Positions 48,836 through 54,834 of a stretch of DNA of 64,000 nt are shown piece after piece; position 1 is the stretch's first letter, and every line of letters begins with the position of its first letter. Origin of the DNA: Deltaproteobacteria bacterium (lineage in GTDB: Bacteria > Bdellovibrionota > JACOXK01); assembly GCA_016186995.1 (NCBI GenBank), contig JACPKQ010000016.1, forward strand, positions 5,627 through 69,626, given 5' to 3'. Position numbers and translations under genes: made by a program. The notes under the pieces are model-generated. The model searched no databases, had not been told where the DNA came from, and saw only the letters and a list, made by a program, of their open reading frames with translations.

Positions 48836-50137
48836 TCACCAACTGCTTGTCAATTGTGCAACTTTATCACAAATCTCTTCTTCTTTTACAGAAATGAGAT
48901 TGCCATTTTGTTTGAGAATTTTGCCACTTACAACCACCGTTTCAATGGCTTGAGGTGAAAGAGAATAAACAATATTATTAATCAGATTCTCTTTTTTATT
49001 TGGATACAGCGAAATATCCTTAAGATTTAACCCTACAAAATCACAGTGATAATTCTTTTCTAATTTTCCAATAGATAAACCTAAAACCTTACCCCCATTC
49101 TCAGTACCCATTTTAAAACTGGTTTTGGCTCCACAAACTGAACCGTCAAGATTATACACTTTTTGAAGAAGAGAAGTCATTCGCATTTCATCAAAAACAC
49201 TTGTTCGGTTATTAGAACAAGCCCCATCTGTTCCTAAACCAATCACAACATTGTTTTTTAAATATTTTAAAATAGGAGAAACACCGTCACCCAAAAACAT
49301 ATTGCTTGTGGGGTTGTAAGCAAGCTTAACCTCATTTTCACCCATAAGTTTTATTTCTTCATCTGTCACCCACACACAGTGTACACCCACTAGTTTTTGA
49401 GAACACACCCCCAAAGAATCTAAAAATAAAATGGGAGTTTTCCCAAACTTTTTCTTTACTTGTTCTACCTCATAAGGAGCTTCTGCAATATGCATGTGAA
49501 GAAAACAATTTTTTTTCTTTGCAATATCCAATCCTGCTTCAATCATTTCAACGCTTGCGCCATGAAGACTGTGCGGGGCTGGATAAATATGAACCATAGA
49601 ATTATTTTCATATTTTTCAACTAAAGAAAGACATCGCGCATGGGCATCTGAAACCTTTTCTTGGTATTGTTTGGGGGCTCCCTTCCAATCATACATGGTG
49701 CGAGCCATCACAAAACGAATTCCTACCTCTTGAGCTGCTTTAACCACCGCTTCTGCATTTTCATTGCCTCCATTATGAATATAGAAAAAATCGCACACTG
49801 TTGTAACCCCGTATTTAACCATTTCACTAAACGCAAAAAGAGCTCCTATATAAATACCTTCGCTATTTAAAAGTTTTGAATATTTATAAATGCCATCATC
49901 ACGCCACTTTTCAAAAGGAAGATCATTAGCAAATCCTCGTATTAAGGATTGAAAAGAATGAGTGTGGACATTCACAGTACCCGGAATAAGAACCTGATCT
50001 TTAAATTGAACAACATCTTTAGATTTGGGGTCTTGAGAAAGAATATCTGTGATTTTTCCATCTTTACATACAAGAGTGTGGTTCTCTTTAAATTCTCCAT
50101 CTACATAGACAAGTGGCGCTTTAAAAAATGTGCTCAT
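48836..50137 (-). CDS. amidohydrolase-family deaminase/chlorohydrolase (MtaD/guanine-deaminase-like)
   Basis: Metal-binding VNVHTHSFQS (HxH), then later HMHIAE and GTDGACSNN, typical of the TIM-barrel amidohydrolase superfamily. Confidence 0.7.
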   Translation of the reverse strand: MSTFFKAPLVYVDGEFKENHTLVCKDGKITDILSQDPKSKDVVQFKDQVLIPGTVNVHTHSFQSLIRGFANDLPFEKWRDDGIYKYSKLLNSEGIYIGALFAFSEMVKYGVTTVCDFFYIHNGGNENAEAVVKAAQEVGIRFVMARTMYDWKGAPKQYQEKVSDAHARCLSLVEKYENNSMVHIYPAPHSLHGASVEMIEAGLDIAKKKNCFLHMHIAEAPYEVEQVKKKFGKTPILFLDSLGVCSQKLVGVHCVWVTDEEIKLMGENEVKLAYNPTSNMFLGDGVSPILKYLKNNVVIGLGTDGACSNNRTSVFDEMRMTSLLQKVYNLDGSVCGAKTSFKMGTENGGKVLGLSIGKLEKNYHCDFVGLNLKDISLYPNKKENLINNIVYSLSPQAIETVVVSGKILKQNGNLISVKEEEICDKVAQLTSSW

Positions 50138-50203
50138 AAGACTAGCTCATATCCATAAAAAATTGAGTTCTACTTAACTTAAAGTTCGAGGTCTTGCGAG
50201 AAA

Positions 50204-50362
50204 ATGATCTGTATCTGGAGCGGAAGTAAAGCGCAGCCCAAAGTTTGTAAATACTCAAAATACTGGATCCCGGATAGTGCCTCGCACTTCCGGGATGACA
50301 GAAAATTCGTGTGGGACAAATACAGCGAGCCATGGAGCGAAAGATATAGATCATTTTAAGAA
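50204..50362. repeat. ~155-bp structured repeat (copy A) with terminal inverted repeats and central ggatcccgga...tccgggat hairpin
   Basis: Aligns along its length to 54170..54335 at roughly 80% identity by eye. Its terminal stems differ between copies but stay complementary (tgatctgtatc/gatatagatca versus ggttactatc/gatagtaacc). Confidence 0.75.
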
Positions 50363-50422
50363 CCTAACCTCTTTAGTAGCAGTCACTTGACCTCATTTCA
50401 AGGCTCGACTAGGATGCCCTCC

Positions 50423-51346
50423 ATGCGTAAATACCTGTTTGTTTTTATGGCGTTTCTGCTTGTGTTCACAGGTTCTCTTTATTATTTCAAACCTCACACA
50501 GAGAACACTAACAAGCCACACACACTTCAAGATGAGTTAGGTCGAAGTGTTACTTTGCCGGAAAGCAAAGAACGCCTTATTTCCCTAGCACCTAATATTA
50601 CTGAAATACTTTTTGCTTTGGGTATGGGTTCATCTGTTGTAGGTGTTTCAGACTTTAGTGATTATCCTCCCGAGGCTGTCAAGCTTCCTAAAGTAGGTGG
50701 CTTTGCAGGGCCTAATATAGAACTCATTGCAGAACTTAAGCCTGATCTTGTGATTGCAACAGCTGATGGCAACCCAGAACAATCTGTAACAAAACTTAAT
50801 AAAATTTCTGTACCCAGCTTTGTTATTAATCCAAGAAGCTATGATGGCATTGTTCAGTCCATTGGGAAGTTGGGTATTATTTTAGATAGAAAAGAAGTTG
50901 CAGAAAAAATTGCAGAAGCCATGAATGCCACAAAGGTTTACATACAAACCCAAGTAACACCCTTAAAACAACCTAAAGTACTTTTTCAATTAAATGCAAA
51001 ACCTATTATGAGTGCTAATAAAAATACTTTTGTACATGATCTTATCTCCATTGCAGGTGGCATTAATATTGCAGCTGAATCAGGTATTAATTATCCAAAA
51101 TTAAACGCAGAAGCTATTGTTCAGAAAAATCCAGATATTATTATTGTAGCTTCAGACGAAAACCAATTTAAAGTTATTCAAGAACAGTGGAAAACATTCT
51201 CCAGTGTCTCTGCCGTCAAAAATAAAAAAATTTATCACATTAATCCAAACATTATTTTAAGACCTTCCCCAAGGGTCACTCAAGGACTCATACAACTTTT
51301 TAAAATTTTTCACATACCCACCTCCCTTGAAAAAAATAAAGGGTGA
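50423..51346 (+). CDS. ABC transporter periplasmic binding protein, iron-siderophore/cobalamin (BtuF/FhuD) class
   Basis: Signal peptide; the class-III SBP fold is suggested by ISLAPNITEILFALG...PDLVIA and the single long hinge helix. Confidence 0.7.
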   Translation: MRKYLFVFMAFLLVFTGSLYYFKPHTENTNKPHTLQDELGRSVTLPESKERLISLAPNITEILFALGMGSSVVGVSDFSDYPPEAVKLPKVGGFAGPNIELIAELKPDLVIATADGNPEQSVTKLNKISVPSFVINPRSYDGIVQSIGKLGIILDRKEVAEKIAEAMNATKVYIQTQVTPLKQPKVLFQLNAKPIMSANKNTFVHDLISIAGGINIAAESGINYPKLNAEAIVQKNPDIIIVASDENQFKVIQEQWKTFSSVSAVKNKKIYHINPNIILRPSPRVTQGLIQLFKIFHIPTSLEKNKG

Positions 51347-51355
51347 CGTTTAAGG

Positions 51356-52324
51356 GTGTTAAGCGCTAAAAAAATTATTCTAACTTGTTCTTATTTATTT
51401 TTTTTTCTTGCTATTTGTTTTTTAATATCCATTAAAAGTGGGGCAGTCTCATTTTCTTGGGGTGAGGTTTTTGACTTTTCAAATAAAATTATTACTTCTA
51501 TTCGTATTCCACGTGTCATTTTAAGTTTGATTGTGGGGGCATCGCTTTCTCTTGCTGGTGTTGTGTTTCAGGCTATTCTTAAAAACCCACTTGCAGACCC
51601 CTATGTGCTGGGTGTTTCAAGTGGAGGGGCCGTTGGGAGCACTTTAGCTGTTCTTTTAGGGCTTGTTTTTTTACAACCACTTTATGCTTTTTTTGGATCT
51701 TTTTTAAGTATTGTTTTTGTGCTTTTTGTTGCAAAAAGAACAAGCTCACATTCTCTTATTTTAACAGGTGTCATTCTTAATTTTTTTCTAGCCTCCCTAC
51801 TCACTTTATTTTTATCGCTCGCCTCTCCAGCACAACTGAGTTCTTCTTACACATGGATTTTAGGAAGTCTCTCCTTTTCTTCATGGGATCTCTTATTAAA
51901 ACTTTTACCTTTTATTTTGATAAGTATACTTTTTCTTTATTATTGTTCACATCTTCTTAATATTTTAAGTTTGGGAGAGGAAAAGGCATTGACGCTGGGT
52001 GTATCCGTTCAAAAATGGAATCTTATTCTTCTTCTTATAACTTCTTTTTTAACAGCTATTGTTGTTTCTTTAAGTGGTATTATTGGTTTTGTGGGGCTTA
52101 TTATTCCCCACACAGCAAGAAATATATGGGGAAGTGATCATCGCATTCTTATTCCTACTTCCCTTCTTTTAGGAGGAAGTTTTGTAATGATAGCAGATAC
52201 TTTAGCACGCACTCTTTTTTTACCTGCTGAAATTCCTGTGGGTGTTTTAACCGCCATTATTGGAGCCCCTCTTTTTATTTATTTTTTAAAAAAAGGTTAT
52301 GATTTTCAAAGCGCAAGAAATTGA
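51356..52324 (+). CDS. FecCD-family ABC permease
   Basis: RIPRVILSLIVGASLSLAGVVFQAILKNPLADPYVLGVSSGGAVG is the FecCD/BtuC signature. Confidence 0.8.
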   Translation: MLSAKKIILTCSYLFFFLAICFLISIKSGAVSFSWGEVFDFSNKIITSIRIPRVILSLIVGASLSLAGVVFQAILKNPLADPYVLGVSSGGAVGSTLAVLLGLVFLQPLYAFFGSFLSIVFVLFVAKRTSSHSLILTGVILNFFLASLLTLFLSLASPAQLSSSYTWILGSLSFSSWDLLLKLLPFILISILFLYYCSHLLNILSLGEEKALTLGVSVQKWNLILLLITSFLTAIVVSLSGIIGFVGLIIPHTARNIWGSDHRILIPTSLLLGGSFVMIADTLARTLFLPAEIPVGVLTAIIGAPLFIYFLKKGYDFQSARN

Positions 52325-53060
52325 TTTTTGGATCGAGGAAAAAAAGATCCTCAGTAATATCTCACTTAATATTGGAAGTGGTTCTTTCACTGCACTTCTA
52401 GGCCCCAATGGAGCTGGTAAATCAACTCTTCTTAAGATTTTTTCAAGAGTTTTAGAACCTTCACAAGGAAAACTCTTTTTTGAAGATAAAGAAATTAATT
52501 CAGTATCTTTACGAGATTTTTCAAAAAATGTATCTTACCTTCCACAAAACTTTCACTTTCCATTTGCTATTCAGGTTTTAGATCTTGTCCTTTTGGGAAG
52601 AACGCCTCACCAAAATTTTTTAACTTTTAATAACCAAAAAGATTTATATATTTCTATTTCAGCATTAAAAAAAACAGGTGTTGAACATTTGCAAGATCGA
52701 TATTTTCAAACTTTAAGCGGTGGGGAAAAACAAAAAGTGCTTCTCGCTAAATGCCTTGCGCAAGAAACAAAAGTGTTGTGTCTTGATGAACCTACAACAT
52801 TTTTAGATTTAAAACATCAGATTGAGTTTTCTGATCTTCTTAAAAAGCTTAAAAGTGAAAATAACTTCACTGTTATCCTAGCAACCCATGATTTAAGTTT
52901 TTTAAAAAATTGCTGTGATCATACTGTCTTTTTAAAACAAGGAGAAGTGGTCCAATATGGAAACACAAAAGAACTTCTTACAACATCTAATATTGCAAAA
53001 CTCTTTGATTTACCTAAAGCTTCGCTTAAAGGATTTCCTTTAGAAGAATACCCTCATTGA
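52299..53060 (+). CDS. ABC transporter ATP-binding protein (FecE/BtuD-like)
   Basis: Walker A GPNGAGKST, signature LSGGEKQKV, Walker B LCLDEPT. Confidence 0.8.
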   Translation: MIFKAQEIDFWIEEKKILSNISLNIGSGSFTALLGPNGAGKSTLLKIFSRVLEPSQGKLFFEDKEINSVSLRDFSKNVSYLPQNFHFPFAIQVLDLVLLGRTPHQNFLTFNNQKDLYISISALKKTGVEHLQDRYFQTLSGGEKQKVLLAKCLAQETKVLCLDEPTTFLDLKHQIEFSDLLKKLKSENNFTVILATHDLSFLKNCCDHTVFLKQGEVVQYGNTKELLTTSNIAKLFDLPKASLKGFPLEEYPH

Positions 53061-53804
53061 TAAAGAGTGTTGTAGTTCTCTTTTTTTAAGACTTTGTTCA
53101 AAACCATAAAAAAAGCCTAATTTATAAAGCGCCCAACCAGCACCTAAAGAATAAGATTGGAAAGAAGGTGTGGTATTAAAATGCCCACCCCCTCTAAACG
53201 AAAGACCAGTTTTTTCATGATGAATTTCGGCACCCGTTTGAAGTGAAAAATTCTTTTCTGAAAAATTTTTTGAAACATCTGAAGAAAGAAGAAGAATATC
53301 ATAAATATTTAATTGAACACCCACTCCTAAAATTTTGGAATCACTTAAAAGATCCTCTCCTACAAGTCCAACATGAATATTTGAGTGCACTTCTAAAAGC
53401 CCCCCTGCCTTAAGATTCACATGGTTGAAAGTATCATTAAAAGTATAATCGCTTCCTATTCCTAAAGAAAAAACACCCCATCTTTTTGCCAAAGCCCCTT
53501 GTATAACGTTTTGAGGACTTTCCACATCAAAATCCTTTCTTGAATATCCCAAAGCAGCCCCGTAAAAAGATGTTTTTGAATCAACAACTGAAGCATTCCA
53601 AGATCGCACCCCAGGTTTTACATCAACATAAGCTTCAATAGAATATTTATCCGTAAAGGCGAAAGAAGCTGGATTTGAGCTTAAACTTTCATTTAAAGAT
53701 ATAACCCCTCTTAAAGCACCTGATAGCCCTAAAGACCGTGGGCCCACAGCACTTACAGAAGAAACTAAAGCTCCTAAAAATAAAACAGATAACGGCAATT
53801 TCAT
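53040..53804 (-). CDS. outer-membrane beta-barrel protein
   Basis: Signal peptide MKLPLSVLFLGALVSSVSA, alternating beta-strand pattern, terminal aromatic (…MRVFF). Confidence 0.5.
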   Translation of the reverse strand: MKLPLSVLFLGALVSSVSAVGPRSLGLSGALRGVISLNESLSSNPASFAFTDKYSIEAYVDVKPGVRSWNASVVDSKTSFYGAALGYSRKDFDVESPQNVIQGALAKRWGVFSLGIGSDYTFNDTFNHVNLKAGGLLEVHSNIHVGLVGEDLLSDSKILGVGVQLNIYDILLLSSDVSKNFSEKNFSLQTGAEIHHEKTGLSFRGGGHFNTTPSFQSYSLGAGWALYKLGFFYGFEQSLKKRELQHSLSMRVFF

Positions 53805-53822
53805 ATCTTCACAAGCTAGCAT

Positions 53823-54459
53823 ACATACGTTACCCCCTCAACAAAGGTCTTTGTAATGGTGCTTAACAACACGCCTCAATTCTCTCATGGATTTGAATCT
53901 CCTTGTCATTTCCGCTCTGAGGTGAAGCCAATAGCTGGAATCCAGTATTAATTTTAAGCTCTTGAAATGGTAACAAAAGATAGGGATAGTACTTCCTTCG
54001 GGTACGGCGTCACTTTTTTCCTGCGAAAAAGTGCGCCTCGCGTCTCAGTCAATCTGCCACATATTCTATGTGGACCAAGCCAGATTTCCTTCCGACACGA
54101 CCCTCTGTAAGCACTATCCCTATCTTTTGCCCTATAGATTTATTTCGAGTTCATGTGAAGAAATGGTTACTATCTGGAGCGGAAGTAAAGCGGAGCCCAA
54201 AATTTGTAAATATTCAGAATTCTCTCATCCCGGACAGTGCTTTAGCACTTACGGGATAACGAAGAATTCATGTGGAACAATTACAGCGAGCCATGAAGCG
54301 AAAGATAGTAACCATTTTAAGAACTTAATTTGGAAAAGAAGAATACTAGATTCCTGCTTGTGCGCTTTGCGCTATCAGCGGGAAGGATGTTCTCAAAGGT
54401 GGGTTGACTTTGAATACTTAATTATGCTAAAAATTGGCGCCTTTGTGGGGAGGAACTAA
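53823..54459. repeat. 640-nt non-coding repeat mosaic including copy B (54170..54335) of the 155-bp element and a fragment of the 74-bp element (53868-53900)
   Basis: The alignment to 50204..50362 is described above. caattctctcatggatttgaat matches 12565-12586. The predicted ORFs in this region are low-complexity and overlap repeats. Confidence 0.7.
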
Positions 54460-54468
54460 GTGATTTAT

Positions 54469-54834
54469 ATGAATAAAACAAAACTTAAAAAATTCGAAAA
54501 AATACTGACAACCCAGTTAGAAGAACTTTTTCGAGGGGCTATCCAAGTAGCTGATGATACTATTCTTTCTGACGAAAAAGGAAAGCTTGATAATGTCGAT
54601 TTAGCTTCCATTGAAATAGATTGGATCAATTCTCTAAGAATTAAAGATAGGGAACGAAATCTCATGCTTAAAATCAAACAAGCCCTTAGAAGAATTGATG
54701 ACGGCTCCTTTGGGGTTTGTGATAGTTGTGGTGAAGAAATTAATGAAAAACGTCTTTTAGCGCGCCCTGTCACAACACATTGTGTTGAGTGTAAAGAAAT
54801 AGCTGAGGAAACCGAACAAAGAAAAGGTTTATGA
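54469..54834 (+). CDS. DksA/TraR-family C4 zinc-finger protein
   Basis: The C-terminal CDSCGEEINEKRLLARPVTTHCVECK is the four-Cys finger of DksA/TraR, preceded by a coiled-coil-like segment. Confidence 0.7.
   Translation: MNKTKLKKFEKILTTQLEELFRGAIQVADDTILSDEKGKLDNVDLASIEIDWINSLRIKDRERNLMLKIKQALRRIDDGSFGVCDSCGEEINEKRLLARPVTTHCVECKEIAEETEQRKGL

Follow-up and report, generated by a model that had tools for sequence, protein, structure and literature searches.

Repetitive extragenic palindromic sequences (REPs), their doublets (REPINs) and the miniature inverted-repeat transposable elements known as MITEs are common in bacteria, and the way in which they move is known for few of them. Integron attC sites, such as the VCRs, are recombination sites that are recognized as a folded single strand, and palindromic elements of another kind, the Rickettsia palindromic elements (RPEs), were reportedly described by Ogata et al. 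in 2000. Compensatory changes are frequent in REPIN hairpins, which are thought to be active as single-stranded DNA (PMC3116915), and REPs require a GTAG tetranucleotide (PMC8266576), located at the 5' foot of the palindrome. We analyzed a 64,000-nucleotide (nt) stretch of DNA from a Deltaproteobacteria bacterium (assembly GCA_016186995.1, contig JACPKQ010000016.1, forward-strand positions 5,627 to 69,626), referred to below as the window, which carries two copies, A and B, of a hairpin-forming repeat on either side of a B12/iron-type transporter locus. The repeat belongs to a dispersed family that we class with the structured interspersed repeats and that is probably, if by no wide measure, a non-autonomous, REPIN/MITE-like mobile element acting as a folded single strand.

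In behavior the family is most like the REPINs, yet their defining features fail. As in the REPIN/REP-RAYT system (RAYT, REP-associated tyrosine transposase), its members are non-coding extragenic hairpins of ~100 nt that occur in multiple copies, show compensatory changes and contain no internal transposase (PMC3116915, PMC8266576). However, a REPIN consists of two inverted conserved REP units and a variable spacer, whereas here the arms are free in sequence and a single asymmetric centre is conserved. The alignment of 29 members described below holds no conserved GTAG, the only similar string being GTAA within GGAAGTAAAGCG. A RAYT (TnpA-REP) is an HUH Y1 transposase, encoded by a single-copy gene that the repeats usually flank; no RAYT or Y1 transposase was found among the annotated neighbor genes on fragments of up to ~20 kb around each copy. 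With the MITEs (Correia/NEMIS, ERIC, Nezha; reviewed in PMC10969869) the family shares small, non-coding, palindromic units that are intergenic or occasionally intragenic and present or absent between relatives, as well as possible TA flanks in one subfamily. MITEs, in contrast, have conserved terminal inverted repeats matching an autonomous insertion sequence, while the termini of the window, GWA2-type, high-GC and Nevskiales-type copies differ completely and only the centre is shared, even between bacteria as distant as gamma- and 'delta'-proteobacteria. One copy is tolerated in frame in a coding gene (selB at locus L009, ~20 residues), as RPEs are, but RPEs are said to be confined to Rickettsia, the in-frame insertion was seen once here, and no sequence relation is expected. 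As is also said of attC sites, stem structure rather than sequence matters, central length is very variable and the repeats form direct-orientation, species-specific families; unlike attC sites, neither the window copies nor the alignment contains RYYYAAC/GTTRRRY boxes, and what is conserved lies within the hairpin, not at the base of the stem. No cassette array or integrase was present among the flanking genes examined.

Extent and architecture of the family

A sequence-only reading of the window had proposed two same-orientation repeats, about 80% identical, at 50204-50362 and 54170-54335. Repeat blocks and pairwise alignment confirmed the pair with limits up to 26 nt wider: both copies are on the + strand, 3.96 kb apart in direct orientation, and share ~180 nt at 83% identity in both gap-free blocks (Table 1). 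Within the window there are exactly two occurrences of the 19-mer CTGGAGCGGAAGTAAAGCG and two of a 25-mer, vs. none in 100 shuffles, and a profile search of the window with filters off gave no further copies beyond A and B. An AT-rich inverted repeat at 2761-2929 was considered as a third copy and rejected; its arm spacing is similar but the core is absent. The + strand of either copy folds much more stably than shuffled sequences do, and an A-run and a U-run flank the stem.

The same reading had described an outer inverted-repeat stem with compensatory differences, and this holds for arms of 16 nt in copy A and 15 nt in copy B. The arms differ between the copies at four paired positions, with pairing kept at all four, for which a rough estimate of the chance is ~1e-5, from 1/C(15,4) x (1/3)^4; the sole non-Watson-Crick position of the copy A stem is a G.U pair on the + strand. 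Paired substitutions had also been claimed for the central hairpin, but reading base by base showed that none is compensatory: from copy A to copy B, a T->C change falls on an extra-helical base of the 5' arm and a C->A change makes a G-C pair into G.A.

Further copies were collected by exact 16-19-nt core motifs, an approach that underestimates diversity and copy number. One scan covered GTDB, with one genome per species, for exact matches to CTGGAGCGGAAGTAAAGCG, and a second covered metagenomes for exact matches to GAGCGGAAGTAAAGCGNAGC. Nine of the 14 GTDB loci contain the element, one (L012) contains a minimal, divergent variant in a Bacillota-labelled metagenome-assembled genome (MAG), and at the remaining four the 19-mer matches by chance. 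'Deltaproteobacteria bacterium GWA2_38_16' carries four GTDB copies (two at L003, one each at L006 and L009), those at L010 and L013 come from one further MAG, with L013 cut off at the contig end, and L014, L011 and L001 hold single copies. The metagenome scan returned 30 loci. The host of the L042 copy has a DnaN closest to Nevskiales gammaproteobacteria. Taxonomic labels of MAGs may be wrong. After removal of duplicates, 29 distinct full copies from MAGs and metagenomes of 35-74% GC could be aligned, so that the repeat is no mere pair.

The family is apparently undescribed so far. Against Rfam 15 at gathering score, the window and nine loci gave no match apart from transfer RNAs; at E <= 10 the window copies and short copies gave only chance matches to miRNA hairpins and similar models, and a high-GC copy gave none at E <= 1. 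In IMG/VR, a 17-mer gave two chance matches, a two-part pattern none, and a 15-mer from the 3' core more than 120 chance matches, none with the 5' core nearby, while blastn of PLSDB plasmids with a short copy and a high-GC copy gave no match. A full-text literature search for the core sequence found no paper, and keyword searches returned only general REP/MITE literature. Compared by eye, the core did not appear to fit a hammerhead, hairpin ribozyme, k-turn, signal recognition particle (SRP) RNA, boxA or retron.

Every copy has the same plan: one arm of a long closing stem, a 5' core, a variable apex, a 3' core and the other stem arm. Both core halves, (C)UGGAGCGGAAGUAAAGCGCAGC on the 5' side and GCGAGCCAUGRAGCGRAR on the 3' side, are near-invariant over the 29 aligned members; together they form a purine-rich core of ~22 + 20 nt (~45 bases in all). 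GCGAGCCATGRAGCG, within the 3' core, is conserved across the family though it lies outside both search patterns. The closing stem (15-30 bp) is free in sequence, and the apex ranges from 5 nt to ~130 nt: short copies of ~95 nt, such as the 92-nt one at L010 (1184-1275), have only a 5-10-nt loop, the copies of ~69-74% GC have a two-hairpin domain, and a third group (L025, L033, L042 and L043) has a different long helix.

This structure was proposed from single-sequence folds and then tested on the alignment. All 22 outer-stem pairs show double changes, and 89% of the cells in the outer stem are paired, vs. 35-49% when partners are slid by one to three columns. The covariation score of 0.561 compares with 0.164 in shuffles and was reached by none of 500 of them. 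RNAalifold independently recovered the same closing stem along with four 2-bp helices in the core, and showed that the first apex pair covaries (AU in 11, CG in 10). We read the core, on this model, as very short helices that would alternate with purine-rich internal loops. The sequence-only reading had thus been right that the repeat is structured, dispersed and kept paired in its stem, now over 29 members, and its suggestion of a MITE or structured non-coding RNA was in the right neighborhood.

A near-identical decamer, GGAGCGGAAG or GGAGCGRARR, occurs on both strands beside the stem and, on this model, faces itself. A profile search found a diverged second copy at L031 that reads AUGAGCGUAAGUAAAGCGCAGC, indicating that the first two G and one internal G of the decamer are not essential. 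Well-formed stems contain at least seven independent G.U pairs vs. one A.C, and a tandem G.A/A.G in the stem is common to 10 high-GC copies. Since these would be A.C or pyrimidine mismatches on the opposite strand, they indicate that structural constraint acts on the strand with GGAGCGGAAG, whether as RNA or as single-stranded DNA.

Genomic contexts and the case for mobility

The neighbors of the copies are unrelated housekeeping genes. About 11 copies are antisense to tandem neighbors, three are co-oriented and four, including both window copies, are in divergent spacers; with regard to a possible replication-strand bias, orientation relative to genes differs between subfamilies and GC skew in the window is weak. 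At L009 the copy (3199-3300) is in frame in the selB open reading frame (ORF; 2159-3688), where it adds to the linker before the winged-helix domains ~20 residues that are absent from nine homologues. A 99% identical SelB from a RIFCS 'Deltaproteobacteria' MAG has the same insertion. At L042 the copy fills the spacer from the recF start to the dnaN stop exactly and is antisense to both genes, while relatives whose DnaN is 94, 87, 84 and 82% identical have spacers of 100, 21, 60 and 55 nt that lack the core and hold other hairpins or none. Decayed copies (L036, L026a) and half copies (solo 3' halves at L019) also occur.

Two copies are present at each of several loci, namely L003 (within 8 kb), L019, L031 and, in tandem, L026. 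The tandem full copies at L026 lie at 35-179 and 274-418, 240 nt apart, and at L019 (~1361-1382 and 3622-3642, minus strand) a solo 3' half follows each full copy after ~12 nt, starting exactly at AUGGAGCGGAGG. The solo halves and the tandem suggest recombination or repeated insertion at the repeated decamer.

The conserved UAA and AUG of the core do not appear to serve for stop/start or for ribosome bypass: in selB the copy is translated through in a different frame, and the AUG is in frame with a downstream gene in one copy only, L003b. In that copy (L003, position 7156, minus strand) the conserved 3'-core AUG is in frame with a downstream ORF of 267 aa (6353-7158) that has a signal-peptide-like N-terminus, MKRKKTSSFSLLFGIIFISIPVFSQ; the element may have supplied a secreted protein with its start codon and its charged n-region.

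Dispersal, rapid gain and loss, the lack of a fixed partner gene or orientation, the in-frame insertion, decay, the strand-specific constraint and the invariant centre together fit a mobile element. Such an element would spread, or would once have spread, as a non-autonomous unit in the manner of REPINs and MITEs; a trans-acting enzyme would recognize its core on single-stranded DNA or RNA, the stem having no part beyond presenting the core.

Several points weigh against mobility. No gene for a mobilizing enzyme was seen beside the copies, nor any autonomous partner or transposition intermediate, and none of the loci examined carries a gene placed between the two halves of the core, as an autonomous version would. 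Target-site duplication is not established: in several GWA2-type copies the decayed outer arms have TA on their flanks, the window copies have no ends that can be fixed with single-base precision, and the empty sites, which come from relatives at 65-94% protein identity rather than from strains, are too diverged to align. Classical MITEs and REPINs show the opposite of an invariant centre with free arms. The degree to which the 5' core is conserved is overstated, being partly built in by the exact core seed, the invariant 2-bp core helices give covariation nothing to test, and exact conservation of >40 nt across genomes of 35-74% GC could equally reflect a host RNA function.

This last point leads to a different proposal, that the repeat is a multi-copy structured RNA gene or module, for example a sponge RNA, an RNA that binds a protein, or a self-cleaving ribozyme of a new class. 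In it the core would be what acts or is bound, the closing stem would serve as a clamp and the apex would be a dispensable stem, an arrangement known from hammerhead and twister ribozymes. An invariant core set between covarying helices, with an optional stem of variable length, is what such an RNA would look like; G.U pairs and the tandem G.A specific to one strand, together with four GGA motifs read in the core loops, fit it as well, and with no Rfam match it would be new. However, the surroundings of the copies hold no conserved promoter or terminator motif, in about 11 of 14 tandem-gene contexts the neighboring genes run antisense to the folding strand, and both window copies lie upstream of likely promoters. 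A copy translated inside selB, truncated and decayed copies, and orthologous sites without copies in close relatives likewise weaken the case for an RNA gene, which we regard as possible but doubtful.

Other hairpins occupy some of the same places. Unrelated perfect hairpins are found in element-free orthologous spacers at L054 (1880-1930), L175 (3772-3871, between dnaN and recF, with a 22-bp stem) and L181 (~4105-4150), and it seems that hairpin-forming sequences repeatedly land, or are retained, in such spacers. This would also be expected if the copies were generic intergenic stem-loops kept by the host, such as terminators or mRNA-stabilizing REP-like hairpins, that share a core through recent horizontal spread and without a role for it, and the A-run and U-run beside the stem of the window copies point the same way. 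Yet the core is identical at 35% and 73% GC while stems and apices have adapted to the composition of the host completely, which speaks for a long stay in these genomes under constraint; moreover, the U-tract is absent from high-GC copies and many copies are antisense to the surrounding genes. We consider generic stem-loops improbable and continue to favor a mobile element.

Assembly breaks also fall within the repeat. Short-read contigs from two runs (L048 and L049) end inside copy A, their position 1 corresponding to window ~50240, and contigs L023 and L045 also end inside the element; these independent breaks are at the core/apex boundary, as a repeat would lead one to expect, and the repeat thus fragments assemblies of these organisms.

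The transporter locus and the window copies

Copies A and B flank a transporter locus, and the sequence-only reading had suggested that they could mediate excision or duplication of a 3.8-kb transporter island. The genes it named for the binding protein, permease and ATPase were confirmed as Peripla_BP_2, FecCD and ABC_tran, whereas the outer-membrane barrel is plausible but unproven, its ORF having no family match. This ORF (53040-53822, - strand) encodes 260 aa with a signal peptide and a C-terminal ...MRVFF and matches neither Pfam nor NCBIfam, and a relative has a 265-aa ORF in the same position; judged from these features, it probably encodes a small beta-barrel protein of the outer membrane that would work with the ABC importer.

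That the repeats border a mobile or excisable iron/B12-uptake island, or that copy A is a riboswitch or leader of the BtuF-like operon, is suggested by the direct orientation and 83% identity of two ~180-nt copies 3.96 kb apart and by the position of copy A just upstream of the Peripla_BP_2/FecCD/ABC operon. The gene order, however, is conserved in relatives that have no repeats. Relatives with a 65-67% identical amidohydrolase keep the divergent amidohydrolase/binding-protein/FecCD arrangement (contigs P0005, P0004 and P0003), and on the P0005 contig the order continues with the ABC ATPase, the 265-aa ORF, dksA, an NTP-transferase gene and priA. Their spacers on the copy A side measure 66 nt at L053, 165 nt at L054 (with an unrelated hairpin) and 134 nt on the P0005 contig, where the copy B-side spacer is 71 nt; the core was absent in a profile search of the L053 and L054 loci, and the P0005 contig was judged from spacer lengths alone. 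The block encodes only the transporter and the OMP-like ORF (OMP, outer-membrane protein), with no integrase, transposase or other mobility gene. The transporter is not an island; its synteny is conserved without the repeats. Recombination between the 83% identical direct copies is physically possible, and nothing indicates that it has occurred.

The promoters tell equally against a leader. A sigma-70-like promoter of the binding-protein operon, TTGACC-17-TAGGAT, was predicted by consensus scan downstream of copy A, and the TTGAC...GATGCC...ATG arrangement is also present in the element-free orthologous spacer of L053. When the window (50387-50426) is compared with L053 (2419-2486), TTGACC/TTGACA ... 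TAGGAT/TACGAT is conserved and ends ~8 nt before the binding-protein ATG, which suggests that the mRNA of the transporter operon has no leader or a very short one. A promoter-like site for dksA (TTGACT..TAAAAT), read by eye near 54404-54436, lies downstream of copy B. Given these sites, neither copy need be in the respective mRNAs, and copy A is probably not part of the binding-protein mRNA if the predicted promoter is real. A cobalamin riboswitch for the BtuF-like operon was rejected, as no cobalamin or other riboswitch model matched even at E <= 10 and relatives lack the element; a riboswitch for the transporter was rejected on the further grounds that the same element stands beside unrelated genes, and inside selB, and that the promoter lies downstream of copy A. 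Both the island and the riboswitch are thus very improbable, and the window copies, each upstream of a likely promoter (one for the transporter operon, the other for dksA), are best seen as insertions that are tolerated rather than as regulators or island borders.

Table 1. Parts of copies A and B and the predicted promoter downstream of copy A, in window coordinates
Feature	Position	Strand	Basis and remarks
Copy A, 183 nt	50185..50367	+	A/B alignment, repeat families D1/D2; fold -59.9 kcal/mol, z = -4.5; in divergent spacer between amidohydrolase gene (48836-50137, -) and Peripla_BP_2 gene (+)
Copy A closing stem, 5' arm	50201..50216	+	Inverted repeat I16, 16 nt
Copy A closing stem, 3' arm	50342..50357	+	Inverted repeat I16
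Copy A 5' core half, CTGGAGCGGAAGTAAAGCGCAGCCC	50215..50239	+	Exact 19-mer also in copy B; columns invariant in 29-member alignment
Copy A variable apex, ~81 nt, including hairpin 50267-50296	50240..50320	+	
Copy A 3' core half, TACAGCGAGCCATGGAGCGAAAGAT	50321..50345	+	25-mer matched in both copies
Putative sigma-70-like promoter of binding-protein operon	50387..50415	+	Consensus scan
Copy B, 185 nt	54144..54328	+	Alignment; fold -54.7 kcal/mol, z = -5.0; in divergent spacer between OMP-like ORF (-) and dksA (54460-54834, +)
Copy B closing stem, 5' arm	54161..54175	+	Inverted repeat I19, 15 nt, 100% complementary
Copy B closing stem, 3' arm	54303..54317	+	Inverted repeat I19
Copy B 5' core half, CTGGAGCGGAAGTAAAGCGGAGCCC	54174..54198	+	19-mer matches and alignment
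Copy B variable apex, including hairpin 54227-54257 (G.A mismatch relative to copy A)	54199..54281	+	Alignment, fold and base-by-base reading
Copy B 3' core half, TACAGCGAGCCATGAAGCGAAAGAT	54282..54306	+	25-mer match

The window also contains a second, different family of structured palindromic repeats, at 7700-7859 and at 53974-54129, the latter just upstream of copy B. Its 30-nt arms pair within each copy although they are unrelated in sequence from one copy to the other. Part of the interior is conserved (column identity is ~74% overall), and the two copies have a common 5' flank, CTTGAAATGG. The predicted folds are strong (z = -5.8 and -7.1), with no Rfam match at gathering score. The family follows the same logic of free stem and conserved interior as the main element.

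Meaning of the conserved centre

For annotation, these results free a B12/iron-type transporter locus of two false readings, as an island and as a riboswitch, and the repeat explains assembly breaks in these MAGs. The element itself is unusual in two respects: the conserved part is an asymmetric centre of ~45 nt rather than the ends, and the same centre occurs in genomes of 35% to 74% GC from very distant lineages. A centre shared so widely points to a conserved partner, either an enzyme or a host factor, that reads the folded single strand. It is conceivable, and we offer this tentatively, that the core is a new functional nucleic-acid module kept across phyla in a self-propagating hairpin, whether as the recognition site of a structure-specific mobilizing enzyme, which would make the repeat a new kind of single-strand mobile element, or as a new ribozyme or protein-binding RNA. 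Short 92-nt variants make the core directly testable in vitro, and a partner, if found, would add a new element-enzyme pair or a new class of RNA.

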